Source of the DNA: a virus
Lineage: Duplodnaviria > Caudoviricetes
Direction: 5' to 3' (one strand)
Virus record (IMG/VR): IMGVR_UViG_3300049053_000087
Span: 1 to 56,885 of that record
Length of the DNA: 56,885 nt
The translations under genes and the position numbers were made by a program. Below are positions 4,425-47,195 of this stretch, piece by piece. The notes under the pieces are model-generated. The model ran no database searches. It saw only the letters and a program-made list of their open reading frames with translations, and had not been told where the DNA came from. Each line of letters starts with the position of its first letter. The stretch's first letter is position 1.

Positions 4425-5693
4425 ATGACAGACGTAACATCAAGCCAGCCAGGCCTTTTTGACAAACCGAGGGCGGTTATCCGTGAAACCAGAATACTGG
4501 AATGCTGGTGCCCTAAGTGTCATCAGGGCCAAATTAAGACAATTCTTAGCGATAGCTTCCATAATGACCGTGCAATTATAGAAAGTGTTGGTAAAGAGTT
4601 TACATGCGTTAATTGTGGCATTGTATACGAGGTTGGCGACTTTCTATCTGTCATCCCTAACGCTTTTATGGTGGCGTCAAGGTCACAAGAAAGCAAAGTA
4701 AAATCAAATATGGAGGTCGAGGCTTGGCTGAATGAACCAGTAGTTAAAGATGAAGGTAATTACGATGGTGATGCAATTATGAAGGATCTGGAATTAGTTA
4801 ATCGGGCCTCAGAGGTAACTAATAAGTTCTTGGAAAACATGTTGGCGAAAATTAATAAACCGTCGAACCACGTGTCCCCGGAATTACCCGCTGAGGATAC
4901 TGAAGTTGAGCAGGAAGAAATGCCCGAAACAACCAATGAAGTACAGGCTGTTTTAAAACAATGCGCCGTACTTGGTAACGTAGTAAAACTTCCTGATGGA
5001 CAGCTCGATCGGAAGCTATATGCCGATGTGAAGAAGGCGTTAGAGTTGATCGGCGGCAATTGGAAAGGAGGCAAAACATACGGCTTTGTTTTTCAAACGG
5101 ACCCTACCGAATTGTTGGAGCAGATCGCTAACGGCGAAAAGCGCAACTTAAAAAAGGAGTACCAATTCTTTGAAACACCCGTTGAGCTTGCTGCGCGTAT
5201 GGTTGAGATGGCGGAACTGGGTGAAACCGATGGGCAGGGCTACGGCGACATACTGGAACCCTCAGCCGGTCAGGGCGCAATTGTAAAAGCTATACACGAA
5301 GCGACGGAAGGGGCTGCCACCGTGTACTGTTATGAATTGATGGATATAAACAGAGGTATACTTTCAGCAATGCCCGGCGTATCAATCATAGGTGACGACT
5401 TTTTGAAGGCTGCCAGTGTTGTCCAATACGATCGCATCATTGCGAATCCGCCGTTCACAAAGAATCAAGACATTGATCATATAAGGCATATGTATAACCT
5501 GCTGAAGCCTGGCGGGGTGATGGTTTCATTGGCTTCCCCAAGCTGGAAGTTTGGTTCTCAAAAGAAACAGGTCTCATTCAGAGAATGGTTAATTGGGATC
5601 GATGCGTATTTGCAGGAAATTCCGGAAGGCGCCTTTAAAGAATCAGGAACATCAATCAGGACCGTTTTGATTAAAATAGTAAAACCCGATTGA
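4425..5693 (+). CDS. amino (N6-A/N4-C) DNA methyltransferase with N-terminal Zn-ribbon region
   Basis: ILEPSAGQG (motif I) precedes IANPPF (motif IV); CPKC/CVNC at the N-terminus. Confidence 0.85.
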   Translation: MTDVTSSQPGLFDKPRAVIRETRILECWCPKCHQGQIKTILSDSFHNDRAIIESVGKEFTCVNCGIVYEVGDFLSVIPNAFMVASRSQESKVKSNMEVEAWLNEPVVKDEGNYDGDAIMKDLELVNRASEVTNKFLENMLAKINKPSNHVSPELPAEDTEVEQEEMPETTNEVQAVLKQCAVLGNVVKLPDGQLDRKLYADVKKALELIGGNWKGGKTYGFVFQTDPTELLEQIANGEKRNLKKEYQFFETPVELAARMVEMAELGETDGQGYGDILEPSAGQGAIVKAIHEATEGAATVYCYELMDINRGILSAMPGVSIIGDDFLKAASVVQYDRIIANPPFTKNQDIDHIRHMYNLLKPGGVMVSLASPSWKFGSQKKQVSFREWLIGIDAYLQEIPEGAFKESGTSIRTVLIKIVKPD

Positions 5694-5699
5694 AAGAGT

Positions 5700-6497
5700 A
5701 TGCATATCAGCAATCAAATAAAAACTTTTGATTACTTGGGAAGTAAGTTTTCAATTCTACCATGGTTGTTACCTCAATTACCAGCATGTAACCATTATAT
5801 AAGTGTCTTTGGTGGTGCGGCATCCGATCTCATCAACCGAGATCCTTCACCAATTGAAACCTACAATGATCTCAATGGTAACGTTGTGAACTTCTTTTCG
5901 GTGCTTCGGAATAAATCTAATGAGCTGATTGCTGCCCTTGAATTAACATTACATAGTAGACAAGAATATAGTAATGCTTGGTATTGTGAGACTGATACAG
6001 ATATTGAAAAGGCCAGAAAGTTCTTTATTCGAACGCAACAATCTATTTATGCTGCAGGAGCTCAAGATAAAGTTAAAGGATGGGCTGCTTCATTAACACA
6101 AAGCAGGGTTAGCATTTCAGAGAAAACACATAGATGGATTAGGGGCGTGAACGGCCTTTGGGAAGTTGCGGAACGATTAAAACATGTGCAAATCGAGTGC
6201 AAGGACTTTAAATTTATTCTGAAGCATTATAACGATAAAGGAACCTTGTTTTATTGCGATCCTCCTTACGATATGACCTTTCGCAGCTCAACAAAGTATG
6301 AATTTGATTTTACGAACCAAGACTTTTTGGATCTCCATTATTGGGCATCTAAAGTAAAGGGGAAAATAGCAATATCAGGATATGATACAGCTTTTATGAG
6401 GGAATTATTTACAGGCTTCAATTTTCACAAGGGGCCAATGCGGAAGAACAATAGATCAAATAAGGAGGCAAAGGAATGCCTTTGGACAAATTATTAA
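5700..6497 (+). CDS. Dam-like (D12 class) DNA adenine methyltransferase
   Basis: YLGSK, VFGGA, YND, YCDPPY, ISGY and ECLWTNY motifs. Confidence 0.85.
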   Translation: MHISNQIKTFDYLGSKFSILPWLLPQLPACNHYISVFGGAASDLINRDPSPIETYNDLNGNVVNFFSVLRNKSNELIAALELTLHSRQEYSNAWYCETDTDIEKARKFFIRTQQSIYAAGAQDKVKGWAASLTQSRVSISEKTHRWIRGVNGLWEVAERLKHVQIECKDFKFILKHYNDKGTLFYCDPPYDMTFRSSTKYEFDFTNQDFLDLHYWASKVKGKIAISGYDTAFMRELFTGFNFHKGPMRKNNRSNKEAKECLWTNY

Positions 6498-6500
6498 ATC

Positions 6501-8339
6501 ATGACTGATCCCTTATTCATAATTGTAGATCTTTTTTGCGGCGCCGGCGGTGATACAACAGGGTTCGTTCAGGCGACACTGGAAGGGATGGGAATTGCCA
6601 AGGTTATCGCGGGTGTAAACCATGATCCTAAGGCTATTAAAAGCCACTGGCTAAATTACCCGGAAGTAAAGCACTTTGAAGAAGATATCAGAACGTTGGA
6701 TTTGACCGACCTGGTTGCCCTGGCTCAATATTATCGGATCAAATACCCGGATGCCTACCTGATTTTATGGGCATCGCTGGAATGTACCAACTTCAGCAAG
6801 GCAAAGGGTGGTCAGCCCCGCGATGCTGACTCTCGAACTTTGGCCGATCATCTTGATCGTTATGTAATAGCCCTGCAGCCTGATTTTATCCAGATAGAAA
6901 ATGTTGTAGAATTTATGAGCTGGGGGCCTATGCGTATTAAGGCAAAGAAGCAACATGCTGATCGAACTGACTTATTTACGATTCCGTGCAATGGAAGCTT
7001 TGTTTATGGATGGATTCCGGAAAGTAGCAAAAATGGGCAGGATTGGTTAAGGTGGCGAAAACAGATCTGCTCACATGGATACGTTGACGAATGGAAGGAA
7101 TTAAACAGCGCCAACTTCGGCGCCTATACTTCTCGTAACCGGTTGTTTGGCATCTTCGCTCGCCCTGGGTTGCCTATTTGTTGGCCTGAGCCCACTCATG
7201 CAAAAAAACCTTCTAAACAAAGTATGCACGGCGATTTAAAGAAGTGGATGCCTGTTAAAGACATGCTCGATTTTTCCGATGAAGGAAAAAGCATATTCAA
7301 TAGGAAAAAACCGCTCGTCGATAATACCTTAGAACGCATTTACGCCGGCCTTATCAAATTTGTTGCAAAAGGTGACAATTCATTTGTGAGCAAATATTAT
7401 AGCGGTAAGCCAGCTGGTAAAGTTGTTAGCATCAATCAGCCTTCCAGCACTGTTACTACTTTCGGTAACCAAGCGTTGGTCCAAGCCGTTGGGTTCACCG
7501 CCCAATCAGTAGATCAACCGGCCGGTACTGTAACGACGATCGATCATCATGCACTCGTGCAAACAAACTTCCTGGTTAAGTACAATTCAAAACAAAAGGA
7601 TGGCAGCTACAATGCTCCATCTGTCGAAGATCCTGCGCCGGTAATAACAACTCAAAACCGGTTATATCTGGCACAATTAAAATTCATTACAAATTATTAC
7701 AGTAATGGAGGCGAGCTTACATCTGTTGATGGTCCCGCACCAACGATTTCAACACACGATCGATCAGCTGTCGTTTCGGTCACAAACCATAACAATCAAT
7801 CTATCGATCAGCCAGCTGGTGTGATAATGACCAATGACAAGCACAGTGTTGTGAATTGTGAGCCGTTCATTATGCCGACCAATTATGATAACAAACCGGT
7901 ATCAACAGATCAACCGGCTCCTACCATAACAGCAAATCGAAAGCATCATTATTTAATTAATCCTGCATACGGGGGCAATCCTTTATCAACAGATAACCCC
8001 TGTCCTGTTATTGTTGCGAGACAGGATAAGGTTCCGCTGTACCTGGTGCAGGCTGAAGAAGGATTAGTTGCTGTACCGGTATATCCAGGTGACAGCAAGA
8101 TTATGATCAAGATAAAAGAGTTCATGGCCATCTTTAATATCGCGGATATAAAGATGCGCATGTTCAGAATTCATGAATTGTTACGCATACAAGGTTTTCC
8201 GTCAGGGTATAAACTTGAAGGAACTCAGGAGGACCAAAAGAAGTTCGTGGGTAACAGTGTGGTGCCGTTGGTTGTACAGAAGTGGACAGAGGCCCTTGGC
8301 TCCCGGTTGATCGAAACCTTTAATCAAAAAATTGCATAG
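6501..8339 (+). CDS. C5 cytosine DNA methyltransferase with repeated variable region
   Basis: DLFCGAGG, WASLECTNFS (catalytic Cys), ENV, R.RLF, RIQGFP and GNSV. Confidence 0.9.
   Translation: MTDPLFIIVDLFCGAGGDTTGFVQATLEGMGIAKVIAGVNHDPKAIKSHWLNYPEVKHFEEDIRTLDLTDLVALAQYYRIKYPDAYLILWASLECTNFSKAKGGQPRDADSRTLADHLDRYVIALQPDFIQIENVVEFMSWGPMRIKAKKQHADRTDLFTIPCNGSFVYGWIPESSKNGQDWLRWRKQICSHGYVDEWKELNSANFGAYTSRNRLFGIFARPGLPICWPEPTHAKKPSKQSMHGDLKKWMPVKDMLDFSDEGKSIFNRKKPLVDNTLERIYAGLIKFVAKGDNSFVSKYYSGKPAGKVVSINQPSSTVTTFGNQALVQAVGFTAQSVDQPAGTVTTIDHHALVQTNFLVKYNSKQKDGSYNAPSVEDPAPVITTQNRLYLAQLKFITNYYSNGGELTSVDGPAPTISTHDRSAVVSVTNHNNQSIDQPAGVIMTNDKHSVVNCEPFIMPTNYDNKPVSTDQPAPTITANRKHHYLINPAYGGNPLSTDNPCPVIVARQDKVPLYLVQAEEGLVAVPVYPGDSKIMIKIKEFMAIFNIADIKMRMFRIHELLRIQGFPSGYKLEGTQEDQKKFVGNSVVPLVVQKWTEALGSRLIETFNQKIA
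7428..8019 (+). repeat. about 7 degenerate protein repeats S(I/V/T)DQPA(G/P)(T/V)(I/V)T inside the C5 MTase
   Basis: SINQPSSTVTT, SVDQPAGTVTT, SVEDPAPVITT, SVDGPAPTIST, SIDQPAGVIMT, STDQPAPTITA, STDNPCPVIVA. Confidence 0.8.
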
Positions 8340-11359: not shown

Positions 11360-11830
11360 ATGTCAAAGAGCGATTCCTACATTAATAAGCTGAAAGACCC
11401 ACGTTGGCAGAAACGAAGACTTGAAATAATGCAAAGAGATAATTTCTGTTGCCAGCAATGTTTTTTAGGTACCAAAACCCTGCATGTTCATCATAAATAC
11501 TATGACCATGGGAAAGAGCCCTGGGATTACCCTGATAAGGTTTTAGTTACACTGTGTGAAGATTGTCATACCTCAGAAGGGGCAGGGAAGCAAGAGGCTA
11601 TGCAGTCTATTTATAGAGCCTTTTGTGACAAAGGGTTCCTTAATTGGGAGATTACTTCTTTAGCGGGAATCATTGATGCCTATATACCAGTACAAAAAAT
11701 ATGGCCTGTTCAAGTTACGGAACTGATAGAACTTATTTTATGTAATAATGATTTTAGAGAAATGATACTTCAAAAATTTGGGGAGATCCGTACGGCCCAA
11801 CTTGAAGCAATGGAACCAATGCCTTATTAA
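11360..11830 (+). CDS. HNH endonuclease-domain protein
   Basis: DPRWQKRR..I..RDNF.CQQC...LHVHH...LVTLCEDCH. Confidence 0.85.
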   Translation: MSKSDSYINKLKDPRWQKRRLEIMQRDNFCCQQCFLGTKTLHVHHKYYDHGKEPWDYPDKVLVTLCEDCHTSEGAGKQEAMQSIYRAFCDKGFLNWEITSLAGIIDAYIPVQKIWPVQVTELIELILCNNDFREMILQKFGEIRTAQLEAMEPMPY

Positions 11831-16275: not shown

Positions 16276-16910
16276 ATAAACGAATGTTTCAAATTCTGGA
16301 TGAAATGAACCAGAAGGATGAAGAAAATAATACTGCAGCGGTCGCTGTAAGTGGTGATTTCGTCGCAGCAAAAACCGCAAAAGGCGGTGGCCACGTAACT
16401 ATTGGCGTACCTGCTGAGGTAATTACCCAGCTATTTCTGAATGAACGAGTTGCTGTTCTGTTGATCATTGATAAAAAGGAATATGACCGGATTGATAAGG
16501 AATCCAAGAAAATAGAACCGTCAATCTATACCACTTCGCCTGAACCAATCAATTTATGGTTCGAACTCAGTCGTGCACAATACCTCACTGTTCCCCGCTC
16601 CGTTATGCAGGCTATGCCAGTTGATTGGCAGTTGAGGATGGCTGAATGTTTAGATCAGCTGGATGCCACTATAGACTGGCGACCAAAGGAAGGCCGGTAC
16701 TGGGTGAAGTTGAAGAACGACAACGGCCGGTATATTCATGATCCATTAATGAACTATCGACATCCGGATCCAGGCGTGATAAAGTTTAAAACCAAGGAGC
16801 GGTCCTGCAGGGTTTGTGGTTGCACGGAGAATGACTGCCGGCAGTGTGTTGAAAAAACCGGTAAGCCTTGCTGTTGGGTAGCAGAAGATCTCTGTAGTGC
16901 TTGTGTATAA
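16272..16910 (+). CDS. hypothetical protein with C-terminal Cys-rich Zn finger
   Basis: CRVCGCT..DC..C......C.WV..DLCSAC. Confidence 0.65.
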   Translation: MNKRMFQILDEMNQKDEENNTAAVAVSGDFVAAKTAKGGGHVTIGVPAEVITQLFLNERVAVLLIIDKKEYDRIDKESKKIEPSIYTTSPEPINLWFELSRAQYLTVPRSVMQAMPVDWQLRMAECLDQLDATIDWRPKEGRYWVKLKNDNGRYIHDPLMNYRHPDPGVIKFKTKERSCRVCGCTENDCRQCVEKTGKPCCWVAEDLCSACV

Positions 16911-16921
16911 TTACTTCTCCC

Positions 16922-17368
16922 ATGCTAAAGAAACTTTACGACAACGACTTTCCCCGTTTAAAACAACTGGCATACAGCATGGCCGGCAATGAATGTGAGG
17001 ATCTTGTTCAGGATGCCTTCATTAAAATGATTCCGTATCAGCATTTATGTTATAGTGAAGCGCAGGCCTTGATAACAACCATCGTTAAGAATAAATGCCG
17101 TGACTGGCTGAGGCATCAAAAAACGGTGCTCCGATATATGAAAGCAATGCCTGAGCCGGAAACCAGCTGTGAGATATCCTTACCATTTGTAGCGAAGGAA
17201 ATAAGGAACCAGGTTAAACAGCTACCGGCATATACCAGGGCAATTATTGAGCTGAGATACTTTGAAGAAATGACGCTCCGGGAAATTGGGAAGATCGTGG
17301 GGAAGGATCATGCTACAGTATACAGTCAGATAAAAAATGGATTGCAAAAACTAAAAATGTTCCAATAA
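16922..17368 (+). CDS. ECF-type sigma-70 factor
   Basis: Region 2 (EDLVQDAF, KNKCRDWLR) and region 4 (LP...R.IIELRYFE.MTLREIG..V HTH); ATG at 16922. Confidence 0.85.
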   Translation: MLKKLYDNDFPRLKQLAYSMAGNECEDLVQDAFIKMIPYQHLCYSEAQALITTIVKNKCRDWLRHQKTVLRYMKAMPEPETSCEISLPFVAKEIRNQVKQLPAYTRAIIELRYFEEMTLREIGKIVGKDHATVYSQIKNGLQKLKMFQ

Positions 17369-21520: not shown

Positions 21521-21550
21521 AAAAAGAAAGCCGACCCAAAAAGGCCGGCT
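21521..21550 (-). terminator. intrinsic terminator, minus strand
   Basis: Minus strand reads AGCCGGCC-TTTTTG-GGTCGGCT-TTCTTTTT. Confidence 0.55.
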
Positions 21551-21667
21551 CACCATGAACCTTCGGACATTATACAACCCACTGTCGCAACAGGGCAATA
21601 ATGTCGAAAGCAATTTTGAAGCATTCAAGTGCTTCCTTAATAGCCAGGATCCACCCTGGCTTTTTTG
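21525..21667 (+). ncRNA. candidate structured small RNA
   Basis: Promoter box, then consecutive hairpins, then a terminator. Confidence 0.35.
21642..21667 (+). terminator. intrinsic terminator, plus strand
   Basis: AGCCAGG-loop-CCTGGCT followed by a T run. Confidence 0.75.
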
Positions 21668-21863: not shown

Positions 21864-22040
21864 TTACTTTCCCAGGTATTTCCTTACATCCTTCACCATT
21901 GGACCAACAGCAGCAACCGCCTCGCGTAGCTTTTCTTCCGTGACTTCAAACGTTTTTGTCCAATAAGTTACTTCATGTACCTGGTTAACATTGATTCGGA
22001 TATCATCCTGTTTACCGGTTTTACTTTTATCGTCAGGCAT
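21864..22040 (-). CDS. DUF3606-family protein
   Basis: MPDDK.K.G.QD..RIN.....EV.YW....V..E.L.EAV..VGP....VR.YL. Confidence 0.8.
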   Translation of the reverse strand: MPDDKSKTGKQDDIRINVNQVHEVTYWTKTFEVTEEKLREAVAAVGPMVKDVRKYLGK

Positions 22041-22107
22041 AAAAATTCGATTTAAAAGGTGAATGAATACATATAAGTTACTGAGAAGCTGGGTCAACGC
22101 CAAAAGC

Positions 22108-22746
22108 TTACCTTTTAAACGCCATACTTAGTATGTTCTGCAGGCCGTGCTTACTCTTCCGTACTATATCCTCATGACCGGATACCGCCACCTTTCGCCA
22201 GCCGTAGTCGGCCATCATTGCAGCCAGGGATATTTCATTGAAATGACGGATATGTTCGTCCGGCTTACGGTGAGGGTACATACCATCAAACCAAGATTTG
22301 CCCTCGGTAATAATATGGCAATAAGGGAGTGACAAGCAAATCGTTTCAGTGGGTAGATCTTTTACAAAATCAAGGCTGGGAAAATGCTCCAGCACATCCC
22401 AAAATGTGATCACGTCAGCCTTTATAATCTCTGGCATAACGTAGGCGCCATCCAGTGGAACACCAGTAACATCGTGGCCATACACATGTTTAATGTGCTG
22501 TTTGGCTGAATTGATGAAGGCGCCGTTACCGTAACCGACATCCATAATGGAATTGACCGGTTTGCCATGGACGCCATGAACAAAGCCGAGGCGCAACGCC
22601 TGCAGTAGTTCGGAGCCCCGTACATATTCAGGTGTATCGTATGTAGCCGAATAAGCGGGATCATAAACGAATGGCCGGTGATCGGTTTGAACAATCACAC
22701 CAAAGCGGTCTACTTCATATTGGCGGCCGTGGGAGGTAAATTTCAT
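22108..22746 (-). CDS. class I SAM-dependent methyltransferase (glycan-cluster type)
   Basis: IMDVGYGNGAF, DVITFWDVLEH and EHIRHF. Confidence 0.85.
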   Translation of the reverse strand: MKFTSHGRQYEVDRFGVIVQTDHRPFVYDPAYSATYDTPEYVRGSELLQALRLGFVHGVHGKPVNSIMDVGYGNGAFINSAKQHIKHVYGHDVTGVPLDGAYVMPEIIKADVITFWDVLEHFPSLDFVKDLPTETICLSLPYCHIITEGKSWFDGMYPHRKPDEHIRHFNEISLAAMMADYGWRKVAVSGHEDIVRKSKHGLQNILSMAFKR

Positions 22747-23450
22747 GTTAGAATGTTTTCATTACTTGTAAATAGTAAAGTGTTTGTTTTGTTTCGTTTA
22801 GGTTCCAGGTAATAGGTTTTGCCCAGGCCCTGGGCTAACGTAAGTGCTACTGACTGGTTGCAATACAGTGCATTACAATCCCGGATCAGTTGTGCCATCT
22901 CCAAAATGTTTTGGGTTGGCAGGTGCGGTAGGTTGCCATACAACCGGCAGAACTCAGCGTGTTCTTCCTCAAAGCCGATGAAGTAGACTGGTCCCGCGAT
23001 GTTTTTAAACACCCGCTCCCAATTCACCTGGCTGCCGTCCCGCCAGCGTGGAGTAAGGTGAATAAGACTGTATTCACCAGATGGCGCACCAGGTGCGACG
23101 CCAGTGATTGTTAACCAAGGTTTGTTCCATCCTGTGGTCGGAAGCCCAAAGCGGGCAAGCATGTTCACAATAATATGAATGCGCCCGCGGCCACGCATTA
23201 ACCTGAAGCTATCTATGTCATAGTCGAACTGCAGGCCCGGTTCATATACCATGGAGTCAAAGCCGCCGGCTGTACACAGCACATCAAAGCCCTGCATTCC
23301 CAGCAGGTCTTTCATTACCGAATAGAGATTATGGAACGGTGGTTTATACCAAGACTCTTTCACATAAACGCGGGTAACGCCCAGCTTTCGCATGACCGGA
23401 ATGGCATAGACGATATCGCCACAACCGCCAGAGGTAGCTGCTGTAATCAT
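22743..23450 (-). CDS. GT-B glycosyltransferase, GT9/heptosyltransferase-like
   Basis: N-terminal GGCGD; C-terminal ILEMAQLI......NQS....LA.GLGK. Start MITAAT overlaps the upstream stop. Confidence 0.65.
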   Translation of the reverse strand: MITAATSGGCGDIVYAIPVMRKLGVTRVYVKESWYKPPFHNLYSVMKDLLGMQGFDVLCTAGGFDSMVYEPGLQFDYDIDSFRLMRGRGRIHIIVNMLARFGLPTTGWNKPWLTITGVAPGAPSGEYSLIHLTPRWRDGSQVNWERVFKNIAGPVYFIGFEEEHAEFCRLYGNLPHLPTQNILEMAQLIRDCNALYCNQSVALTLAQGLGKTYYLEPKRNKTNTLLFTSNENILT

Positions 23451-23995
23451 GGATAAACGATAAGAAGATTGCGAATAACCGGATTTGCGCAATAATGGAA
23501 ATTATAGGCCGGGTTAATACTCTTCAAGTCAGAATCTAATTCATCCTCACAATATTTCGTCAGTCGGGTGTCGGTCATATAAATAAGGTCATCAATAAGG
23601 ATAACATGATCAACGCGGCCCGTTTTTTCAATTTGCTTTAATTCCTGTTTTAAAGGAAATGGATTTTTGCCTGGGTTCGTACCATCCAGCATTTGCCAAT
23701 GGCTATCCAACCAGAAGGTAATCGGCTCATTAAAACATCCGAGAATTTCACTCAGGCATTCCGCACTGTCGCCATGATGGATATAAATCTTACCGCTTGG
23801 CTTGTTTTCTTGTAGGTCAAAACGGCTTATGCAAAATTCAATTGCTGTGGGATCATTATCAATGCTGATGATCTTTTCGTATCCTGCATCAAGCGCCAGC
23901 TGGATACCGTCGCCCCGGTAACTTCCGGTTTCGATGAATACCCGGTTATCGCCTTTGAATTCTGCAAACAGGTTGCGGGTGGGGTGCATACTCAT
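23447..23995 (-). CDS. SAM-dependent O-methyltransferase-like protein
   Basis: FIETGSYRGDG, HGDS, FWLDSH and ILIDD. Confidence 0.8.
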   Translation of the reverse strand: MSMHPTRNLFAEFKGDNRVFIETGSYRGDGIQLALDAGYEKIISIDNDPTAIEFCISRFDLQENKPSGKIYIHHGDSAECLSEILGCFNEPITFWLDSHWQMLDGTNPGKNPFPLKQELKQIEKTGRVDHVILIDDLIYMTDTRLTKYCEDELDSDLKSINPAYNFHYCANPVIRNLLIVYP

Positions 23996-23997
23996 AG

Positions 23998-24849
23998 TTA
24001 TATCTTTTTGTTTTCAACTGCCCAATTAAAGATTGCTTCCGGTTCGCAAAATTGGCAGCCTTTATATTGCCCGCTTTCAATATCGGCCGGTGCCGCCCAT
24101 GCGTTCATCATAAGGTTGAGGTGTTTCGGATAAAACATAGTGACAGGGCAAGAAACTGTCGGTGCCAGAATACCCAGGCCAGAAGGGAAGGAGAAGAAGT
24201 ACTTCAGTATTTTCATAATCTCAATTACCACACCGAGTGGTTGCCCGATAGTATTAACGTAAGGGATACCTTCTTTTTCAAGCAGCTTCACAAGATTCCC
24301 GCCGAGATCGAGATCCCACTCGGCACCTATAATTACGAACTTATAACCCGAGTTATGCCGGTATACCATTTGGGCAAGCTCGAGCCACTTATGTTCGTTC
24401 CAGAAACCCCATGCCCGGGAAGTGTTGTATGAACTGCCATACAGTCCTATAAACTCGCGACCTGAACAATCAAGGATTTTATTCATTGCCTGGAAGTTGA
24501 ATTGTTCAGTGTCCCAATTTATACGGAAAGATGTATCCAGGTCGGGGAAGAAAAATTCAATCCGCTTTCCAGCTTCCAGATGTTTATTGGCGCTTAAATA
24601 AAAGTTGTCAGATTTGATATCCCGGAAGCTTTTCTTCTTAAACTGAACATTGTTTTTTTCAACAAAGTCGGTTCGCATTTTAACGTACCTGGTTTCAGCG
24701 GCTACCGATGGTAACAGGTCGAAAATTTGTTTACCCCGTTGCGGCTTGCCATCCGGCATTTCGAAAATAAATTGCTCGTTTGCATTTACCAGCTTTTGCA
24801 ACAGCCATATATTATCCCCGATGCCCGGGCATACTTTAATCGTTCTCAT
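23998..24849 (-). CDS. GT-B glycosyltransferase, GT9-like
   Basis: PGIGD at the N-terminus; W...KW.EL, VIIG, NTIGQ.L and PSGL..LA motifs. Confidence 0.7.
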   Translation of the reverse strand: MRTIKVCPGIGDNIWLLQKLVNANEQFIFEMPDGKPQRGKQIFDLLPSVAAETRYVKMRTDFVEKNNVQFKKKSFRDIKSDNFYLSANKHLEAGKRIEFFFPDLDTSFRINWDTEQFNFQAMNKILDCSGREFIGLYGSSYNTSRAWGFWNEHKWLELAQMVYRHNSGYKFVIIGAEWDLDLGGNLVKLLEKEGIPYVNTIGQPLGVVIEIMKILKYFFSFPSGLGILAPTVSCPVTMFYPKHLNLMMNAWAAPADIESGQYKGCQFCEPEAIFNWAVENKKI

Positions 24850-25534
24850 AATTTGATTTGTTTGGGAATAAAAGATTAAGCACCAGCTCCATATCTTTAT
24901 TTAGGCCGCGATCATCCAACGAGAAGTATGTCCGACCTTTAATCATATCGCCGATTGTATTAAATGGCAACGCAATTTTAATTTTCAAATCAGGGTAATG
25001 GTCACCGGTAATACCATTGTAACTGCAATAGATGGATTTTATAGCATACCCCCAGGCAATGTTCCAGGGCAAACCGGCAATAGCCCGAACGAGCTTTTCC
25101 TTTTCGAATACCATCCCACCATGGCCATAGTTGAATCCGGTACCTCCTAACTTATGGTAAGTATTGACCAATGTATTACGGTAAGTCTGGTGAGGGCTGA
25201 ATATTTTAATTGATTCTTCCAGTGTGGCGCAGTAATTATAATTGACCTGATATGGTTGAAGAAGAAATTCGTCATCAGAAATCCATGCGAAGGAATCACT
25301 GACCCGCTTATCCTCGCAGGCGGCCAATATCGCATTACATATATTACGTTGCTTGTGGTGCCGTTCCGGAGACTCTGTGAATGTAATGTGGAATACGTTC
25401 CGAAGAAAGCGCGGGCAGTCTCCGATGATGAATATATTTTCCAACTCAGGGAAGAACATTTGAATTCCCCGCAACGCATAACGCAGCTCAATGCCGTCGT
25501 TAACGCTGTTTTTGTAAGGAATTACTATATCCAT
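24836..25534 (-). CDS. Stealth-like hexose-1-phosphoryl transferase
   Basis: MDIV.PY, ELRYALRGI..F.P..NIFIIG..P.FL, SD.F...SDD.FL, FSLDD and LFP.KS.YE resemble Stealth CR1/CR2/CR4. Confidence 0.7.
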   Translation of the reverse strand: MDIVIPYKNSVNDGIELRYALRGIQMFFPELENIFIIGDCPRFLRNVFHITFTESPERHHKQRNICNAILAACEDKRVSDSFAWISDDEFLLQPYQVNYNYCATLEESIKIFSPHQTYRNTLVNTYHKLGGTGFNYGHGGMVFEKEKLVRAIAGLPWNIAWGYAIKSIYCSYNGITGDHYPDLKIKIALPFNTIGDMIKGRTYFSLDDRGLNKDMELVLNLLFPNKSNYEND

Positions 25535-25545
25535 AACGTGATAAT

Positions 25546-25587
25546 AGCTTTATTTAAGCGAAAATAGCTTGTTTTGAGCTAAATTTG
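25546..25587. promoter_or_regulatory. tandem AGCT-N7-AGCT sites plus TAAATTTG box in the divergent gap
   Basis: Sites at 25546-25560 and 25566-25580; TAAATTTG at 25580-25587. Confidence 0.75.
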
Positions 25588-25604
25588 TGCATAATAACCT
25601 CAAT

Positions 25605-26108
25605 ATGCCAGCTCCAAAGGGCAATAAATATGCAATAGGTAATAAAGGCGGTCGCCCACCAGTGTTTAAAAACCCCAAACATCTTTCGAAAAAGGTTGAT
25701 GAATACTTCGATTACATACTGGGAGAATTTCATATCGTAGGTAAGAAAAAGGTTTTTGATCGAGAACCAGAGCCTGCAACAATAATGGGATTAGTGCTAT
25801 ATCTTGGATTCAATGGAAGGCAATCGTTGGATGATTACGCAGAAAAGAATGAAGAGTATTCAGACGTTATAAAAAGAGCCCGGGCGAGAGTGCAGTATGA
25901 GTACGAAAAGAGGCTCAGTGAGCCGAAGCCTACCGGGTCGATATTCGCCTTGAAAAATATGGGATGGTCCGATAACCGAGGTATAGAACTTACCGGAGAT
26001 CCTGATAAACCCGTTGAAGTGCGAACTCAAACGAATGTGGATTACAATAAGCTCTCAAATGAGGTCTTGGAAGCCATAGCAAAGGCACGAAAACCATCGA
26101 ATGAGTGA
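25605..26108 (+). CDS. terS: terminase small subunit (P22 gp3-like)
   Basis: MPAPKGN.YA...GGRPP, TIMGL.LYLG and GSIFALKNMGWSD; precedes TerL. Confidence 0.85.
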   Translation: MPAPKGNKYAIGNKGGRPPVFKNPKHLSKKVDEYFDYILGEFHIVGKKKVFDREPEPATIMGLVLYLGFNGRQSLDDYAEKNEEYSDVIKRARARVQYEYEKRLSEPKPTGSIFALKNMGWSDNRGIELTGDPDKPVEVRTQTNVDYNKLSNEVLEAIAKARKPSNE

Positions 26109-27573
26109 TAATGATCCTATCATATTGGACGGTGACAAGGCTTCTGCTGTGCTATGTAAACGCAAATTTTCATGGTTCGTCCGGGAGTTCTGGGAAATAA
26201 TTATCGAAGAAGAATTGGAGTGGGCGCCACACATGGATGTGTTATGTGACGAAATTCAGGCCGTTTACGAACGTGTAATTGCCCGCCAGCCAAAGCTATA
26301 CGATATCATTATTAACATCCCACCAGGTACATCAAAGTCGACCATCGTTACGATAATGGCGCCAGTGTGGAGTTGGACGATAGACGATTCCTTACGCCAT
26401 ATTACCGCCAGTTATTCGATGGACCTATCGACTGAACATGCTGTGAAAAGCCGTGATATCATGCGTTCAGCAAAGTACAGGCGATATTTCCCGCATGTTA
26501 AAATCAAGCCAGACGAGGATAATAAAACCAATTACAAAACAACTAAGAACGGCCAGCGATTCGTTACATCAGTTACTGGTACCGTTACCGGCGTACATGC
26601 GCATATAATTACAGTAGATGATCCGCTAAATCCAAAACAGGCTGCCAGCGAAGCGGAGCTGGCAGAGGCTAACAGGTTCTTTGATCAGACTATTACAACC
26701 CGCAAAGTTGATAAGCGTGTTACCCCACTCATTCTGATCATGCAACGGCTGGCGCAGAAAGATCCATCCGGCCACCTGCTGGAAAAAAAGAAAACCGGCA
26801 TACGCCATATTTGTTTACCTGCTACGGTTGACGGAAAAGTATCACCTGAAGAATATAAAGCTATTTACCAGAACGGATACCTGGATTACAATCGCCTGGG
26901 GCCATCTATATGTGAGGAAATGAAGGTTGACTTGGGAGCCGCGGGGTATGCCGGGCAGTTTGATCAAACACCGGTACCAGCTGGTGGCCTTATCTGGAAA
27001 AAATGGTTCATTGAGGTGCCGGAAGAGGATTGGCCGGATAGGAGTAAAGGCACCGACTATGGAACGGACTGGGACCTTGCGTATACAAAAGATGATGAGA
27101 ATGCGGCTACCGCATATGTCGATTCCTTCAGGTTTAATAACCGCATATTCATTGATGACTTTGATTGGAAATGGCTGGAAATGCCGGAACTGATAAAGTG
27201 GATGAAGACTAAAAACCCGCCTTATTATATTGAGGCCAAAGCATCGGGAAAGAGTGCGAAGCAAATTTTATCTAAACAGGGAATAGTTGCGATAGAAGTC
27301 CCGGTAAAGGGCGGCTCCGATAAAGTAGCCCGGGCACGCATGGCCACGCCGATAGCTGAATCAGGGATTGTTTATATACGCAAAAGCATGGCGGACCGGC
27401 TGTATAACGATGCTAGGCAGGGCATTTTGTTTTTTCCAAAAGGACAGTTTAAAGACCTGGCCGATGCCCTGGCCCAATGTCTACAGCGCCACAGTGTTGT
27501 TGGCTTTAAATACCACTCGGAGGATCAGTATGAGAAGGAGGAAGAGGATATTTTGGGGCAGCTGGGGTATTAG
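26101..27573 (+). CDS. terL: terminase large subunit
   Basis: INIPPGTSKST Walker A, TGVHA..ITVDDP, IMQR, nuclease acids in DWDLA, IE.KASG and KDLADA. Confidence 0.92.
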   Translation: MSDNDPIILDGDKASAVLCKRKFSWFVREFWEIIIEEELEWAPHMDVLCDEIQAVYERVIARQPKLYDIIINIPPGTSKSTIVTIMAPVWSWTIDDSLRHITASYSMDLSTEHAVKSRDIMRSAKYRRYFPHVKIKPDEDNKTNYKTTKNGQRFVTSVTGTVTGVHAHIITVDDPLNPKQAASEAELAEANRFFDQTITTRKVDKRVTPLILIMQRLAQKDPSGHLLEKKKTGIRHICLPATVDGKVSPEEYKAIYQNGYLDYNRLGPSICEEMKVDLGAAGYAGQFDQTPVPAGGLIWKKWFIEVPEEDWPDRSKGTDYGTDWDLAYTKDDENAATAYVDSFRFNNRIFIDDFDWKWLEMPELIKWMKTKNPPYYIEAKASGKSAKQILSKQGIVAIEVPVKGGSDKVARARMATPIAESGIVYIRKSMADRLYNDARQGILFFPKGQFKDLADALAQCLQRHSVVGFKYHSEDQYEKEEEDILGQLGY

Positions 27574-27769
27574 GTTCCTTTCCTAATTGTTTACACGTTT
27601 CTATGTAATCATCAACCGCTTCCTGAAATGCTGCTTCCAGCTCTTTTTCGGATGTGCCCTCAAAGTTTACAAGGTCATTGATGCCGACGATCTTTCCATA
27701 GTACACCTCATCTACCGCGCTATATTCTATAGATGCAGTAAAGCCTTTGTAAATTAATTCTTTATTCAT
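27506..27769 (-). CDS. HicB-family antitoxin domain, orphan
   Basis: YKGF.ASIEYS..D..YYGKI.GI.DLV.FEG....EL..AFQEAVDDY...C...GKEP. Confidence 0.85.
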   Translation of the reverse strand: MNKELIYKGFTASIEYSAVDEVYYGKIVGINDLVNFEGTSEKELEAAFQEAVDDYIETCKQLGKEPNTPAAPKYPLPPSHTDPPSGI

Positions 27770-27775
27770 CTGGTC

Positions 27776-27988
27776 TTAAATTTTACCCGCAATTTTGCGC
27801 CATTCATCAAATGAGGGTGACTTTTTATAATTCATTATAACTACGCCATCAGTAATTGAGATATTAAAATACTCCGTCACATTTTCCCCCTTCAGGTTTA
27901 TAACTGATGCCCGGTCAACTCCATTATGATAAACCGTGAAAGGTGATTTACTACTAACAGGCTCTTCGCAGCCGTTCGTTCTTTCCAT
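27776..27988 (-). CDS. hypothetical protein
   Basis: Part of a tight minus-strand cluster. Confidence 0.55.
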   Translation of the reverse strand: MERTNGCEEPVSSKSPFTVYHNGVDRASVINLKGENVTEYFNISITDGVVIMNYKKSPSFDEWRKIAGKI

Positions 27989-27990
27989 AA

Positions 27991-28266
27991 TTAATCAATT
28001 GTTATGGGTTCCGCCAATGACAGGGTATTAGCATCAACCGGTATTTCCAATCTCTTAACCACAGCCTTTATGTCTTCAATGCTGACATTATTATCGAGTA
28101 TTGTATGATAAATCATATGGACTTTACCTTGATCCGTAATGATACAATCGGGAAAACCATCCCCCTCATCCGAAATAAAACTAAGGCGCTTAGATACATT
28201 CTCTAAAGTGTCATCTTCAAAAAATTGTGGGCTATGGTACCGGTGATATATCCCATAAACAGGCAT
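27991..28266 (-). CDS. hypothetical protein
   Basis: Part of a tight minus-strand cluster. Confidence 0.55.
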   Translation of the reverse strand: MPVYGIYHRYHSPQFFEDDTLENVSKRLSFISDEGDGFPDCIITDQGKVHMIYHTILDNNVSIEDIKAVVKRLEIPVDANTLSLAEPITID

Positions 28267-28292
28267 GATAATATTATTTCACCTAAAGCTAC

Positions 28293-28319
28293 AAAAAAGC
28301 CCTGCATTTCTGCAAGGCT
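28293..28319 (-). terminator. intrinsic terminator, minus strand
   Basis: Minus strand reads AGCCTTGCA-GAAA-TGCAGGGCT-TTTTT, downstream of 28361-28663. Confidence 0.7.
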
Positions 28320-28360
28320 GGTAAACTCTATTCAAAACCGGTACTAAGAAAATAAGTTAA

Positions 28361-28663
28361 TTAACAGGTGACCGCTCGTATGCGGTTACTTTGATTTAGT
28401 AATTGCTCCAAGATAATAGGTGGTGCATTCGCAACGGCTTCCTTCGGCCGGCTGATTGCTTTAACATTTACTTCAGCGGTGATGTGGTTGACAGGCTGAA
28501 CAGCTGGTGGATCAACCTTAATTGGCTGGCTTACCTCAATGGCTACCAGATCATAAGATTTCTTTACCAGTTCTGTCTTTGCCTTGCCATCATCCGCGGC
28601 ATACGAAGCAAATGTCCCACACCCGAAAGCTGCAAAAAGCACTACTGCAATAAATCCTTTCAT
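28361..28663 (-). CDS. exported protein, possible lipoprotein
   Basis: MKGFIAVVLFAAFGC hydrophobic leader with a lipobox-like Cys (alternatively SPI cleavage at SYA). Confidence 0.6.
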   Translation of the reverse strand: MKGFIAVVLFAAFGCGTFASYAADDGKAKTELVKKSYDLVAIEVSQPIKVDPPAVQPVNHITAEVNVKAISRPKEAVANAPPIILEQLLNQSNRIRAVTC

Positions 28664-28702: not shown

Positions 28703-28737
28703 TTATCAAAAAAAGCTATAGAGACTTAAAAAAAGCT
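28703..28737. promoter_or_regulatory. tandem AGCT-N7-AGCT-like sites
   Basis: TTAT-CAAAAAA-AGCT at 28703-28717 and GACT-TAAAAAA-AGCT at 28723-28737. Confidence 0.6.
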
Positions 28738-43774: not shown

Positions 43775-43809
43775 TGCTCTATTTAAGCTATTATAACTCA
43801 AATAAAGCT
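43775..43809. promoter_or_regulatory. tandem AGCT-N7-AGCT sites before the head operon
   Basis: TGCT-CTATTTA-AGCT at 43775-43789 and AACT-CAAATAA-AGCT at 43795-43809; AAACTTTG follows. Confidence 0.7.
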
Positions 43810-43823: not shown

Positions 43824-44972
43824 ATGCCAAAGAGCAAATCATACATCGGGATAAAGAATGAAGCTGAAACCTCCACGTTAGAGCTTCACTTTACTGATTT
43901 TATCTATGATGGCTGGAACTGGGATACCTGGGAAAGTGAAAACCTGGTGCAATCCACCATTGATAAAATCAAAGCGGCTAATCCTTCCAAAATTAAGGTC
44001 GTTATCAATTCCCTGGGTGGTGATGTAATGATAGGCCTCGCACTTTACAACTATATCAAAGGATATAATGCAGAAAAGGAAGTTGATATTCCTGGTTTTG
44101 CTGCATCGATCGCATCTATAATGGCTATGGTTGCTGATCCCGGCAAACTCCGCATGGGCAAAAGCACATTCATGATTATTCATGCTGCTTCATCCGGTTC
44201 TTATGGTAACGCAAGTGAAATGCGCAAGCAGGCTGATATTCTCGATAAAGTAACTAACGAGCTTGCTGCTATCTATGCTCAACGCAGTGGCAAGGATGTG
44301 AAATACTTCACTGACCTGTGGGCTGACGGTGATTATTGGATGACTGCGGAAGAAGCCAAAGAAATTGGCCTCGCCGACGAGATCTATAATTCCGAACCGA
44401 TTAATGCCAAAGTTGATTTCTCCAATTACAATTTCAGGAATGTACCAGCTGCTCTGCTTAATTCAGCGGAAGCCCAACCTGATGAACAGAACCCGATTTT
44501 TAAATTTTTCAATAAGCAGTATATGAAACTTACGGACATGCTCAATAACATCGTCAACAATGCAAAGACGGATAAGAAATTCGAGAAAGTAGAAAACCGT
44601 GATGCGGTTCTCGATATGGTTGCTGAGGTTTTCAAGCCTTTTGCAGAAGCTGCTGATGCCGAGTCCGAAGAAGCTGCTGAGGCAACTACAACTGAAGCTA
44701 AACCAGCTGAAACAAAACCTGCTACAACCGAAACAAAACCTGCTGAGACAAAGCCGGCCACTGAAACTAAACCTGTGGAGGAAAAGCCTGCTGAAACTAA
44801 ACCAGCAGAAAGTGACGATCTAAAAAACGTCCTGGCACGGATGGAAAAGATAGAAAAAGAGAACAAGGATCTCCGTGATGCGCTGGCGGCTCATGAAACA
44901 AAGCCTGAAAACCAAAAAGGCAAAACCGGCAATAGCGGATTCGCTAAAGCAAAGATCGAATACGCTGAGTAA
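43824..44972 (+). CDS. ClpP-like head maturation protease with scaffold-like C-terminus
   Basis: INSLGGDV, AASIAS, FMIIH and WMTAEEA..GLADE. Confidence 0.92.
   Translation: MPKSKSYIGIKNEAETSTLELHFTDFIYDGWNWDTWESENLVQSTIDKIKAANPSKIKVVINSLGGDVMIGLALYNYIKGYNAEKEVDIPGFAASIASIMAMVADPGKLRMGKSTFMIIHAASSGSYGNASEMRKQADILDKVTNELAAIYAQRSGKDVKYFTDLWADGDYWMTAEEAKEIGLADEIYNSEPINAKVDFSNYNFRNVPAALLNSAEAQPDEQNPIFKFFNKQYMKLTDMLNNIVNNAKTDKKFEKVENRDAVLDMVAEVFKPFAEAADAESEEAAEATTTEAKPAETKPATTETKPAETKPATETKPVEEKPAETKPAESDDLKNVLARMEKIEKENKDLRDALAAHETKPENQKGKTGNSGFAKAKIEYAE
44691..44811 (+). repeat. (E/T)KPA(E/T) low-complexity linker repeats
   Basis: TEAKPAETKPATTETKPAETKPATETKPVEEKPAETKPAE. Confidence 0.8.
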
Positions 44973-45024: not shown

Positions 45025-45450
45025 ATGCCTCCTGTATTTGATAACAGCAATTTGGTAAATGGCCTCTGCGGTGGTTGCGAATGCACTGGCTTCGTTCCTG
45101 CAGTAACATTCGTGTATGATGCGAATGCCGGTACCATTACGGTAACCGAAGCCTCTACATATGCGGCTGGTGACGCACGTAAGATCTGTAACATACGTGT
45201 AACCGACAAAGCCGGCAATAAGGTGGATGGCAATATATCAGCCGCTGATGGTGATGATGCTGTTACTATCGATGTATCTGATCTGGATCTATCTGAAGGT
45301 TACCGCATCGATGCAACTGTTCTCGCAAATTCTGGCTGTATCAGTGATGGTCATGCTGGTAGAATTGGAATGCTGATCACTGAAGGTAATATAGGCAGCT
45401 GGGATAAAGACAGCACAACAATAGAGATCGGTGAAGATGATGAATCATAA
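45025..45450 (+). CDS. putative capsid decoration protein
   Basis: Small beta-rich protein between protease and capsid genes; ends EDDES. Confidence 0.55.
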   Translation: MPPVFDNSNLVNGLCGGCECTGFVPAVTFVYDANAGTITVTEASTYAAGDARKICNIRVTDKAGNKVDGNISAADGDDAVTIDVSDLDLSEGYRIDATVLANSGCISDGHAGRIGMLITEGNIGSWDKDSTTIEIGEDDES

Positions 45451-45510: not shown

Positions 45511-46533
45511 ATGGCAAAGCCTTTCAGAAGAATAACGATCAATGGCCCTCAATTTTTCGAGGAAATCCTACTCCCTTCCTTCGGTGATTTGATTGCCGAT
45601 CGGGATGTACGCAATGGTTACTTCGGTGAATTCATGGTCATGGATGATGTTCCTTATGAAAGGAAGATCATCGATATCCGCAGGTTTAAAAACGTTTTAA
45701 AACGCCGTGATGCGGATTGCTCTATGGTTTATGAACCATTGGCACGTGCCGGCCTCCGGATGATTCGCACCACAGAGCTCGGCGCCGCCGTTAAGTTCTG
45801 TCGCGAGGAATTTTACCAAGGCTGCCTGAAAGACTGGAGAGCTGGTGATCCTGTTTTCTACGATCGTATTACCGGGTTCTTTAAGAATGCCATCGGAACG
45901 GATTTGACTTCACTGATGTATTTCGGTGATGTAAGCCGTGCAAACGATTCCAGCGAAGAGGCTTTCAACGTAAACCAATTCGACGGTATCTACACTCAAT
46001 ACGGGAAGTATGTTACCAGCGGAAGAATACCTGCTGGTCAGACTTTCAATGTACCCAATGCGGTTATCTCCGCATCAAATGCAAACGTATACCTGCAGAG
46101 CCTGTACGATCGCATGGATCCGCTGATGAAGTTGATGCCACGTGGCGACCTGGCATTCTACATTGATCGCGACTGGGCAGATGCATATGAGAAATACCTG
46201 GTAGCTACCGGTCAAACATCGAGCGAGGCTGTAAACTTTGTTCAGGACGGTATTAAAGTGCGTGCGTTCATGGGTATTCCAATCTTCGTGAATCCTTTCT
46301 TCAATCCAATTCTTACGCAAATAGTTGCTGCAAACGCTCACTTCGGTGTGTTGACAATCCGGGGAAATTTCGTATTCGCAACTGATAAATCATACGGTAC
46401 GGGTCCCGATGGTGATCAGGCGCTGGTGATCTGGTACGATTGGGATGAAGATACATGGAAGTGGAGAACAGCATTGAAAGCCGGTACGCAAATCGCGCTG
46501 CCTGAGCACTCAACGCTGGCGTTGCCATCATAA
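45511..46533 (+). CDS. major capsid protein
   Basis: 340 aa downstream of the protease; D.....YFGD, FDG and F.GIPI motifs of HK97-fold capsids; ends LALPS. Confidence 0.8.
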   Translation: MAKPFRRITINGPQFFEEILLPSFGDLIADRDVRNGYFGEFMVMDDVPYERKIIDIRRFKNVLKRRDADCSMVYEPLARAGLRMIRTTELGAAVKFCREEFYQGCLKDWRAGDPVFYDRITGFFKNAIGTDLTSLMYFGDVSRANDSSEEAFNVNQFDGIYTQYGKYVTSGRIPAGQTFNVPNAVISASNANVYLQSLYDRMDPLMKLMPRGDLAFYIDRDWADAYEKYLVATGQTSSEAVNFVQDGIKVRAFMGIPIFVNPFFNPILTQIVAANAHFGVLTIRGNFVFATDKSYGTGPDGDQALVIWYDWDEDTWKWRTALKAGTQIALPEHSTLALPS

Positions 46534-46592: not shown

Positions 46593-47195
46593 ATGATCTG
46601 CGTTAAACTCAAAAAGTACGATGTCGCCTGCGCCCCAACTACAGGTGGTATTTCGCGCCTTTGGATATTTGACCGCGATGACTTCGACTTTACTCAAGGG
46701 GCTGCTGATGCCGATGGCAATAAACCGGTATACACGGCAATTGCCAGGCGTGCAGGTGCTACTGCCGATGGTGGTGGTAACCTTTTCCCGGTACTGTTTC
46801 AGTACAAAGAAGGGTCATACTCCTACACACAGTCGCTCAATAATGGTACTTCTGTTAAGTATGAGCACAACCTGGAGTTTCTTCTCGCTGATGTCAGTCA
46901 CTTTATCACTCAGTGGAATGAAGCAGTTGACAGAGCAAGCTCATGTTGCGGTATTGGTGTGATTGTGGAATTGAATTCCGGCAAAGTCCTGGTCCTCGCT
47001 GAGAAATATGTTAACGGCGCCAGCATTCGCGAATGGCGTATGCAACAGAATGGTTCAACCGGTACAACTGGTAAGCTGTTCGAAGATGCGAACGGCCAAA
47101 CAACTAAACTTGTTGGCGACTTCAACCGTGGAGCATATGAATTCACAGGTGGAACAGCCGCCCTTGAAGCATTGGAGGGTGATGACGAAAGCTAA
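46593..47195 (+). CDS. major tail tube protein
   Basis: C....GGI..L.I start, ....G.GT.TG...DANG....L.G motif; ends GDDES. Confidence 0.65.
   Translation: MICVKLKKYDVACAPTTGGISRLWIFDRDDFDFTQGAADADGNKPVYTAIARRAGATADGGGNLFPVLFQYKEGSYSYTQSLNNGTSVKYEHNLEFLLADVSHFITQWNEAVDRASSCCGIGVIVELNSGKVLVLAEKYVNGASIREWRMQQNGSTGTTGKLFEDANGQTTKLVGDFNRGAYEFTGGTAALEALEGDDES

Follow-up and report, generated by a model that had tools for sequence, protein, structure and literature searches.

A Candidate Glycosyltransferase–Methyltransferase Cassette Adjoining the Terminase Genes of a Tailed Phage and Its Possible Role in Virion Glycosylation

Organization of the Cassette

The IMG/VR virus record IMGVR_UViG_3300049053_000087 (Duplodnaviria; Caudoviricetes), the full 56,885 bp of which were analyzed and are referred to here as the window, has a CheckV completeness of 100% and harbors five consecutive minus-strand genes (g1–g5, numbered in the direction of transcription) divergent from the terminase genes terS and terL (Table 1). 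These genes code for a Stealth-like protein, two proteins resembling glycosyltransferases of family 9 (GT9), an S-adenosylmethionine (SAM)-dependent methyltransferase, and a further probable methyltransferase. Overall, the cassette appears to be a glycan-building module of tailed phages, self-contained and passed on horizontally, with three soluble transferases and two methyltransferases. Its relatives were collected in a scan with the g2 family, which returned 38 viral loci (the related loci; individual loci are cited below by their L-numbers).

The genes of the cassette are tightly packed: g1 and g2 overlap by 14 nt, a 2-nt gap separates g2 from g3, and the g3/g4 and g4/g5 junctions are 4-nt overlaps. 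The start of g4 (23450) was set 14 codons inside the listed open reading frame (ORF), a position supported by all g4 homologs. Between g1 and the terS ATG at 25605 lies a gap of 70 bp (25535–25604). In none of the five proteins did a 19-residue Kyte–Doolittle window exceed 1.29, i.e., no membrane segment was found; the net charge and isoelectric point of the enzymes were uninformative. Accordingly, the coordinates, the junctions, the terS ATG, and the hydrophobicity scan all agree with an earlier sequence-only reading of this DNA, which had described five tightly coupled genes lacking a membrane anchor and separated from terS by a 70-bp divergent gap.

Table 1. Positions of the cassette genes, their neighbors, and the associated sequence elements in the window.
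Feature	Position	Strand	Description
g1	24836–25534	minus	232 amino acids; minimal Stealth-fold protein (predicted; hexose-1-phosphate-transferase-like); phrog_7999
g2	23998–24849	minus	283 amino acids; putative GT9-like glycosyltransferase, by sequence
g3	23447–23995	minus	182 amino acids; probable small class I SAM-dependent methyltransferase
g4	22743–23450	minus	235 amino acids; compact GT-B, GT9-like predicted fold, without sequence family
g5	22108–22746	minus	212 amino acids; SAM-dependent methyltransferase
terS	25605–26108	plus	GP3_package E 8e-16; phrog_606; divergent neighbor of the cassette
terL	26101–27573	plus	phrog_38 E 2.9e-65
Element facing g1	25547–25580	minus	core AGCT-N7-CTTAAATAAAGC at 25547–25569; further AGCT 7 nt upstream
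Element copy	28714–28736	plus	precedes, by 26 nt, the first gene of the block whose last gene encodes the tape measure
Element copy	43786–43808	plus	precedes the gene of the head maturation protease by 15 nt
Element copy	50092–50114	plus	extra upstream AGCT (50081); 2 nt before the homing-endonuclease-like gene heading the fibre block
DUF3606 gene	21864–22103	minus	PF12244 E 4.5e-22; directly 3' of g5
Terminator-like hairpin	21528–21551	minus	10 pairs, 6 of them G–C, then a T-run; consensus match only

The Stealth-Like Protein

Taken alone, g1 matched the Pfam model Stealth_CR2 (PF11380) with E 1.8e-5 and 25.3 bits, below the cut-off of 39.4. In the alignment of its family, composed of the window g1 and 20 relatives from the related loci, the same model was matched by 16 of the 21 members (best E 9.9e-11). 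The family profile compared with the sequences of PDB entries retrieved GNPTAB, a GlcNAc-1-phosphotransferase (1.4e-8), and CpsY (1.5e-5). The alignment is hallmarked by an invariant L–R in ELRYALR, an invariant D–D pair, and an invariant His followed two residues later by a nearly invariant Pro; the His and the Pro presumably represent CR3. The models of Stealth_CR1, CR3, and CR4 found no match in g1 or its 20 relatives in a Pfam scan at E ≤ 0.1.

The predicted model of g1 (predicted local distance difference test, pLDDT, 95.8) points in the same direction. The Foldseek search retrieved CpsY (2e-11), and the model superposes on all 8 Stealth entries, i.e., on every solved Stealth structure, with Z 18.4–20.6 (VIA), the next family reaching 11.3. 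These superpositions cover 205–222 of the 232 residues, spanning residues 1–232, at a root mean square deviation of 2.5–2.8 Å. Hence, by its CR2 family signature and its predicted fold, the assignment of g1 as a Stealth-like transferase holds; the transfer of a phosphosugar by g1 is a conjecture by analogy with these enzymes.

Distant relatives of g1, sharing 24–28% identity over the full length and annotated as hypothetical, occur in mycobacteriophages. In Patt, the gene (L064, 1286–1969) lies three genes upstream of the terminase, and in Gaia (L065, 4875–5648) it is situated between a homing endonuclease and a methyltransferase.

The GT9-Like Enzymes

The two GT9-like proteins were recognized by different kinds of evidence. 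For g2, it is the sequence of the relatives: the window protein itself has no Pfam match, and PF01075 (Glyco_transf_9) was matched by 16 of the 30 scanned members of a set of 340 homologs (best E 2.7e-9), some of which are named heptosyltransferases by JGI. The nearest Atlas cluster to g2 (score 0.98) is labelled GT9 and carries PF01075 in 54% of its members. The g2 family profile aligns, weakly (E 0.03), to the C-terminal, nucleotide-sugar-binding half of WaaC.

For g4, it is the predicted fold. Neither g4 nor its 104 homologs display a Pfam domain, and the family profile gave no GT9 match among the sequences of PDB entries. The predicted model (pLDDT 96) was matched by Foldseek to the GT9 entry 3tov (1.7e-6) and also to WaaC, WaaF, and TibC. 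Over 205–217 residues, it superposes on these four with Z 13.5–15.1 (VIA), the next family being at 9.6; GT9-like entries of a chloroplast NDH subunit fall within the same range. For TibC, which we take to be a protein heptosyltransferase, Z was 13.5–13.6, and the matches of the g4 fold in BFVD include phage proteins named ‘Glycosyltransferase Aah/TibC’. The best match of g4 among viral models was a 467-residue protein of an uncultured phage named FkbM methyltransferase, suggesting a glycosyltransferase–methyltransferase fusion. A g4-like fold fused to an FkbM-named methyltransferase would tie a glycosyltransferase and a methyltransferase to one pathway. A paralogous origin of g2 and g4 was considered and rejected: BLASTP revealed no similarity between them, and the hhalign probability was 0.4%.

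No genes of heptose-nucleotide synthesis were seen in the cassette or among the ORFs inserted in the cassettes of its relatives, so an ADP-heptose donor would have to be supplied by the host. A tblastn search with g2 and g4 against 50,697 phage records returned no match; among these records, relatives were found for g1 and g5 only.

The Methyltransferases

The fifth protein, g5, exceeds the cut-off of the Pfam model Methyltransf_23 (35.8 bits vs. 27) and matches phrog_6564, annotated ‘methyltransferase’, with E 9.8e-11. The matches of g3 are weak. Methyltransf_35 (E 0.033) is the sole Pfam match among 15 family members, and the family profile aligns to cap-N7 methyltransferases with E 0.005 over the SAM-binding half. 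In the Atlas, g3 scores 0.97 to a cluster automatically named class I SAM methyltransferase, and its structure matches there are domains within FkbM-methyltransferase and GT2 fusion proteins. On this weak evidence, a small SAM-dependent methyltransferase of class I is the probable identity of g3.

Thus, the enzyme set proposed in the sequence-only reading (a Stealth-like transferase, two GT9-like enzymes, and two methyltransferases) is largely borne out. The structure searches support the Stealth fold in g1 and the GT-B fold in g4, the GT9 likeness of g2 comes from the sequence and that of g4 from the predicted fold, and the methyltransferase nature is confirmed for g5 and probable for g3.

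An Upstream Element Shared with the Structural Genes

The sequence-only reading had also pointed to an AGCT-N7-AGCT doublet in the gap before terS, believed to recur before the tail, head, and fibre gene blocks. In its exact form, this claim did not stand: the doublet occurs twice in the window (25566 and 50081), it is missing upstream of both the tail and the head blocks, and its count is not clearly above chance (0.48 sites expected; two reached in 8 of 100 shuffles). A longer element of 23 nt, AGCT-N7-CTYAAAWAAAGC, does occur at all four places, with four exact sites and one with two mismatches in the window against 0.13 expected; none of 100 shuffles reached five. Its minus-strand copy in the terS gap (25547–25569) ends 12 nt before the g1 ATG; therefore, the cassette and three structural transcription units have an upstream element in common (Table 1).

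The element may represent a late promoter, perhaps read by the sigma factor which the phage itself encodes at 16901–17368 (phrog_1740, E 2.9e-19). Since the copy at 50092 ends 2 nt before a start codon, transcription from it would imply a leaderless or nearly leaderless transcript. At the other end of the cassette, the DUF3606 gene is probably co-transcribed with g1–g5, and the hairpin beyond it is likely the end of the minus-strand transcription unit. The DUF3606 gene had no match in any related locus and lies outside the conserved module.

Several features of the genes downstream of the plus-strand copies deserve a record. The C-terminal part of the head protease (43824–44972) bears a series of TKPAE-like repeats in which Thr, Lys, Pro, and Glu abound. 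In the fibre block, the protein at 51891–53423 has weak PHROG tail-fibre matches, and its C-terminal part resembles what we take to be an SGNH/GDSL esterase; its neighbors (51077–51889 and 53433–54374) possess signal-peptide-like hydrophobic N-termini.

Conservation, Mobility, and Genomic Position

All five cassette genes were found in 16 of the 38 related loci and four of the five in several more, some of them cut by a contig end. The order is not rigid, g1 being found ahead of g2 in some loci and behind g5 in others. In the relatives, ORFs which interrupt the series of cassette genes code for homing endonucleases, RNA-ligase-like proteins, and a further methyltransferase; no nucleotide-sugar synthesis genes were seen among them. 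The inserted homing endonucleases are of the NUMOD4/HNH type (e.g., L011, 9486–10007, and L008, 4277–4738) and may help the cassette to spread. In the window, homing-endonuclease-like genes are situated outside the cassette (50117–50764 and 11360–11830).

When the 78 ORFs of the window were compared with four complete cassette-bearing genomes, the five cassette ORFs recurred (29–53% identity) along with 3 isolated matches. Conversely, the nearest relative of the window terminase (L069) shares terS, terL (56% identity), and six downstream genes and yielded nothing matching either the g1 family or the g2 family. The recurrence of the cassette in otherwise unrelated phages and the lack of g1 and g2 in the terminase relative indicate, therefore, an accessory, mobile module.

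In eight loci, the neighbors of the cassette were identified as portal, terS and terL, or neck genes. According to a BLAST search from these reference neighbors, 17 of the 24 loci with at least three cassette genes have terL or portal no more than about 3.5 kb away from the cassette. The remaining seven comprise one locus with a neck gene only and six without any such gene, several of which end at the contig or locus end. The relatives display three arrangements (between terL and portal, upstream of terS–terL, and divergent from terS), to which the window adds a fourth, divergent from an unrelated terS–terL pair. A survey of the linkage between cassette and terminase, which the sequence-only reading had called for, thus revealed an adjoining terminase or portal gene in most of the loci surveyed.

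The head genes of the window were also inspected for possible acceptor tags. The proteins at 45025–45450 and 46593–47195, flanking a capsid-like gene (45511–46533), end in GEDDES and EGDDES, respectively, i.e., both in DDES. Such ends occur in 2 of the 78 window ORFs, not paralogous by BLASTP, and in no ORF of the four cassette-bearing genomes; because of this absence, the DDES tails are not linked to the cassette and were rejected as acceptor tags.

The Genome Around the Cassette

The left arm of the window codes for recombination and replication proteins, three DNA methyltransferases, and the sigma factor; the tail, head, and fibre genes are in the right arm. The DNA methyltransferase genes stand in a row at 4425–8339, and the 612-residue C5-cytosine methylase among their products matches its Pfam model in three pieces. 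Between terL and the tail block, there is a block of minus-strand genes (27506–28663), one of which resembles what is presumably a HicB-type antitoxin. The three ORFs at 27776–28663 had no match in the terminase relative L069 (the stretch 27506–27769 being outside the queries).

The search for tRNA genes, tyrosine integrases (PF00589), and serine recombinases (PF00239) in the window found none. Isolate phages gave no DNA nearly identical to the window, and its full length was found in one public sequencing run only, labelled as a soil metagenome and perhaps its own source sample. A Bacteroidota host is a conjecture, the basis of which is one homolog labelled at NCBI as belonging to an Agriterribacter metagenome-assembled genome. 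The Bacteroidota-type −7 box, presumably TAnnTTTG, was tried as a further indication: its five sites on the plus strand, including one at 25580 (18 nt upstream of the ATG of terS), are too few for a conclusion on the host.

Possible Function of the Cassette

The findings above are compatible with a late-expressed system which decorates virion proteins with a methylated glycan in the cytoplasm. This function is put forward tentatively, as the likeliest of those considered, quite possible and a little short of probable. The cassette would be transcribed as one unit from the phage-specific element which also precedes the tail, head, and fibre operons. Late in the infection, one of the enzymes would start a sugar chain on the newly made virion proteins in the cytoplasm, and the others would extend it. 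The donors would be host nucleotide sugars, since the phage encodes no enzyme making them. The Stealth-type g1 would add a sugar, possibly as sugar-1-phosphate, and the methyltransferases may cap hydroxyl groups of the glycan; in the end, a short glycan bearing methyl groups would cover the particle.

A more specific version, in which a minimal Stealth enzyme and two miniaturised GT9-fold enzymes of soil phages would build a phosphodiester-containing, O-methylated glycan on capsid or tail proteins, is somewhat doubtful. Joint expression and inheritance with the head genes would keep such a particle-coating module, exchanged horizontally and not described before, beside terminase and portal, and it may spread with the homing endonucleases inserted in it in the relatives.

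A number of considerations speak against virion proteins as the target. First of all, the best-known GT9 and Stealth enzymes act on the lipid A-core, capsule polymers, and glycans, not on proteins. Since the cassette is nearly all that the window shares with four of the cassette-bearing phages, a protein acceptor would have to be recognized without detectable sequence conservation. A search for the 23-nt element in 39 loci from other records gave no match, the window's own sequence being the only one to carry it. Nor does the position by itself carry much weight, because the replication–packaging junction commonly takes accessory genes, and the 17 loci with a neighboring terL or portal represent fewer independent cases, many having related terL and portal genes and some being duplicates (L004 = L005, L025 = L027, L012 ~ L013). 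An integrase is present in two of the five complete cassette-bearing relatives. Finally, the cassette is not homologous to gp35–38 of the phage Corndog, the closest functional parallel (see below), the resemblance being by analogy one in working and not one of family membership.

The main rival, and a real one even if it is considered somewhat unlikely, is the remodelling of the host envelope. Here, at the cytoplasmic face of the inner membrane, the soluble enzymes would modify the lipid A-core or lipid-linked precursors of the capsule or O-antigen, and the host exporters would carry the altered glycan out; the resulting receptor change would exclude later phages or spare the progeny entrapment on cell debris. 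This idea is favored by the closest solved relatives of the enzymes, WaaC, WaaF, and CpsY (‘exopolysaccharide phosphotransferase’). GT9 and bacterial Stealth enzymes are soluble or peripheral, so the missing membrane segment is no argument against it; on the other hand, the cassette revealed no gene of a flippase, a Gtr-type membrane protein, or an O-acetyltransferase. With a host target in common, the passage of the module among phages whose structural genes are unrelated would be understandable, whereas its persistent proximity to the terminase and portal finds no explanation here. Homologs of g3 and g5 reside within a sugar/heptose-nucleotide cluster of the cyanophage S-SM2, and for a related cyanophage a modification of the host cell surface has been suggested, without experiment (PMC12801897). 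Two of the five complete relatives carry an integrase, but it is missing in the window and in the other three. The upstream element is common to the structural operons, and late expression would leave little time for a change of the surface.

Quite improbable is another cytoplasmic acceptor, i.e., a host protein or small molecule which would be glycosylated, e.g., to disarm a defence or to form a soluble methylated oligosaccharide, with the particle itself unmodified. A target common to many hosts would fit the mobility of the module, and the likeness of the predicted g4 fold to TibC as well as the Aah/TibC-named phage proteins in BFVD would suit a protein target. However, three transferases and two methyltransferases imply a multi-step glycan, which is more than inactivation needs, the searches revealed no defence context, and the link with the structural operons would be left unexplained.

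Sugar hypermodification of DNA, in which the transferases would glycosylate a modified base before or during packaging for protection from nucleases, is a highly improbable function. Phage glycosyltransferases related to lipopolysaccharide (LPS) enzymes are described as adding hexose, N-acetylhexosamine, heptose, and Kdo to 5-hydroxymethylcytosine (5hmC), and clusters of this kind in some cases lie close to the genes of the terminase and the structural proteins (Pyle et al., 10.1101/2023.12.21.572611). The cassette adjoins the packaging genes, and the window codes for a C5-cytosine methyltransferase (6501–8339) and two further DNA methyltransferases. Still, the known routes of DNA glycosylation, as presented by the same authors, need 5hmC or 5-hydroxymethyluracil, the formation of which depends on a ThyS-like hydroxymethylase or on a Tet/JBP dioxygenase (10.1101/2023.12.21.572611). 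The idea is weakened, since ThyS and Tet_JBP are absent from all six genomes, i.e., the window and five complete relatives, Tet_JBP in the window even at E ≤ 1; ten unassigned early proteins yielded no oxygenase-like match either. Besides, the C5-methyltransferase gene is 14 kb off and not common to the relatives. No DNA glucosyltransferase was among the Foldseek matches of g4 listed, which is weak evidence; chains of T4 polynucleotide kinase stood there at ranks 20, 31, and 43.

Lysogenic seroconversion by a cassette of the Gtr type is unlikely, since the window lacks an integrase (two of the five relatives have one) and showed neither a hydrophobic segment in g1–g5 nor a PF00589 or PF00239 match. 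Of the alternatives which the sequence-only reading had listed, then, DNA hypermodification and lysogenic seroconversion have lost ground, and the modification of LPS precursors stays a rival to virion glycosylation.

Comparison with Known Systems

In comparison with the known Stealth proteins (GNPTAB and CpsY of Mycobacterium tuberculosis), g1 shares the CR2 signature, the L–R of ELRYALR, and the D–D pair. It differs in its size, 232 residues being far below the matched chains (263–459 residues modelled), in showing CR2 alone among the Pfam models of the family, and in being phage-borne. A similar reduction is characteristic of the GT9 pair: the predicted GT-B fold of g4 and PF01075 among the relatives of g2 resemble WaaC, WaaF, the Veillonella enzyme 3tov, and the GT9-like TibC, but g2 and g4 are shorter by 40–110 residues than the solved enzymes, and g4 has no detectable sequence similarity to GT9. 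Such compact Stealth-fold and GT9-fold enzymes (232–283 residues) may be of interest for enzymology.

The DNA hypermodification clusters described by Pyle et al. (10.1101/2023.12.21.572611) are similar in their LPS-related glycosyltransferases and, for some clusters, in the location near terminase or structural genes. They differ, as described, in depending on a neighboring 5mYOX or ThyS, absent from the cassette-bearing genomes examined, and in the resemblance of their GT-B enzymes to T4 beta-glucosyltransferase, which is not among the g4 matches listed.

In the cyanophage S-SM2, a homolog of g3 (32% identity, E 4e-22) and one of g5 (37%) stand two genes apart (L066, 5721–7597) in a cluster annotated with nucleotide-sugar epimerases, transketolase, and heptose kinase/adenylyltransferase. 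Their neighbors SSM2_193 and SSM2_195 were tried as remote homologs of g2 and g4 and turned out not to be homologous. Unlike the window, S-SM2 has no g1 match, and its sugar cluster is not beside the packaging genes. Should the target of the cassette be the host envelope, the module would amount to a portable kit for the editing of receptors, borne by phages which do not appear to be temperate.

The concept of particle glycosylation already has a worked precedent in mycobacteriophages, the only phages for which glycosylation of the particle by own enzymes is documented in the literature searched (PMC12363180, PMC4351075). In the titles and abstracts covered by this search, no Stealth-like or GT9-like virion-glycosylation cassette of phages is described. 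In Corndog, terS, terL, and portal genes are followed by those of an O-methyltransferase, three glycosyltransferases, the protease, and the capsid protein, and no integrase is present (PMC4351075; NC_004685). Glycosylation of the capsid is reported to require gp38 in Corndog and gp110 in Che8 (PMC12363180, citing Freeman 2023), and the same paper ascribes to it a protection of the particles against the binding of antibodies (PMC12363180).

The cassette of the window resembles Corndog gp35–38 and Che8 gp110 in combining a methyltransferase with several glycosyltransferases, phage-encoded and located in or beside the terminase–portal–head module. In the mycobacteriophages, too, the enzymes are soluble, and they are reported as not found in the particle (PMC4351075, PMC12363180). 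The enzyme families, represented here by the Stealth and GT9 folds, and the host lineage are different: gp35–38 gave no significant BLASTP match (best E 0.034 over 52 residues) and no hidden Markov model match. Moreover, particle glycosylation is reported for Corndog and Che8 and would be a prediction for the phage of the window. If the cassette does glycosylate the virion, soil phages of another host lineage would employ an unrelated enzyme set at an equivalent genomic position, a sign of convergent evolution, and the coating of the particle with a glycan would emerge as a general strategy of tailed phages.

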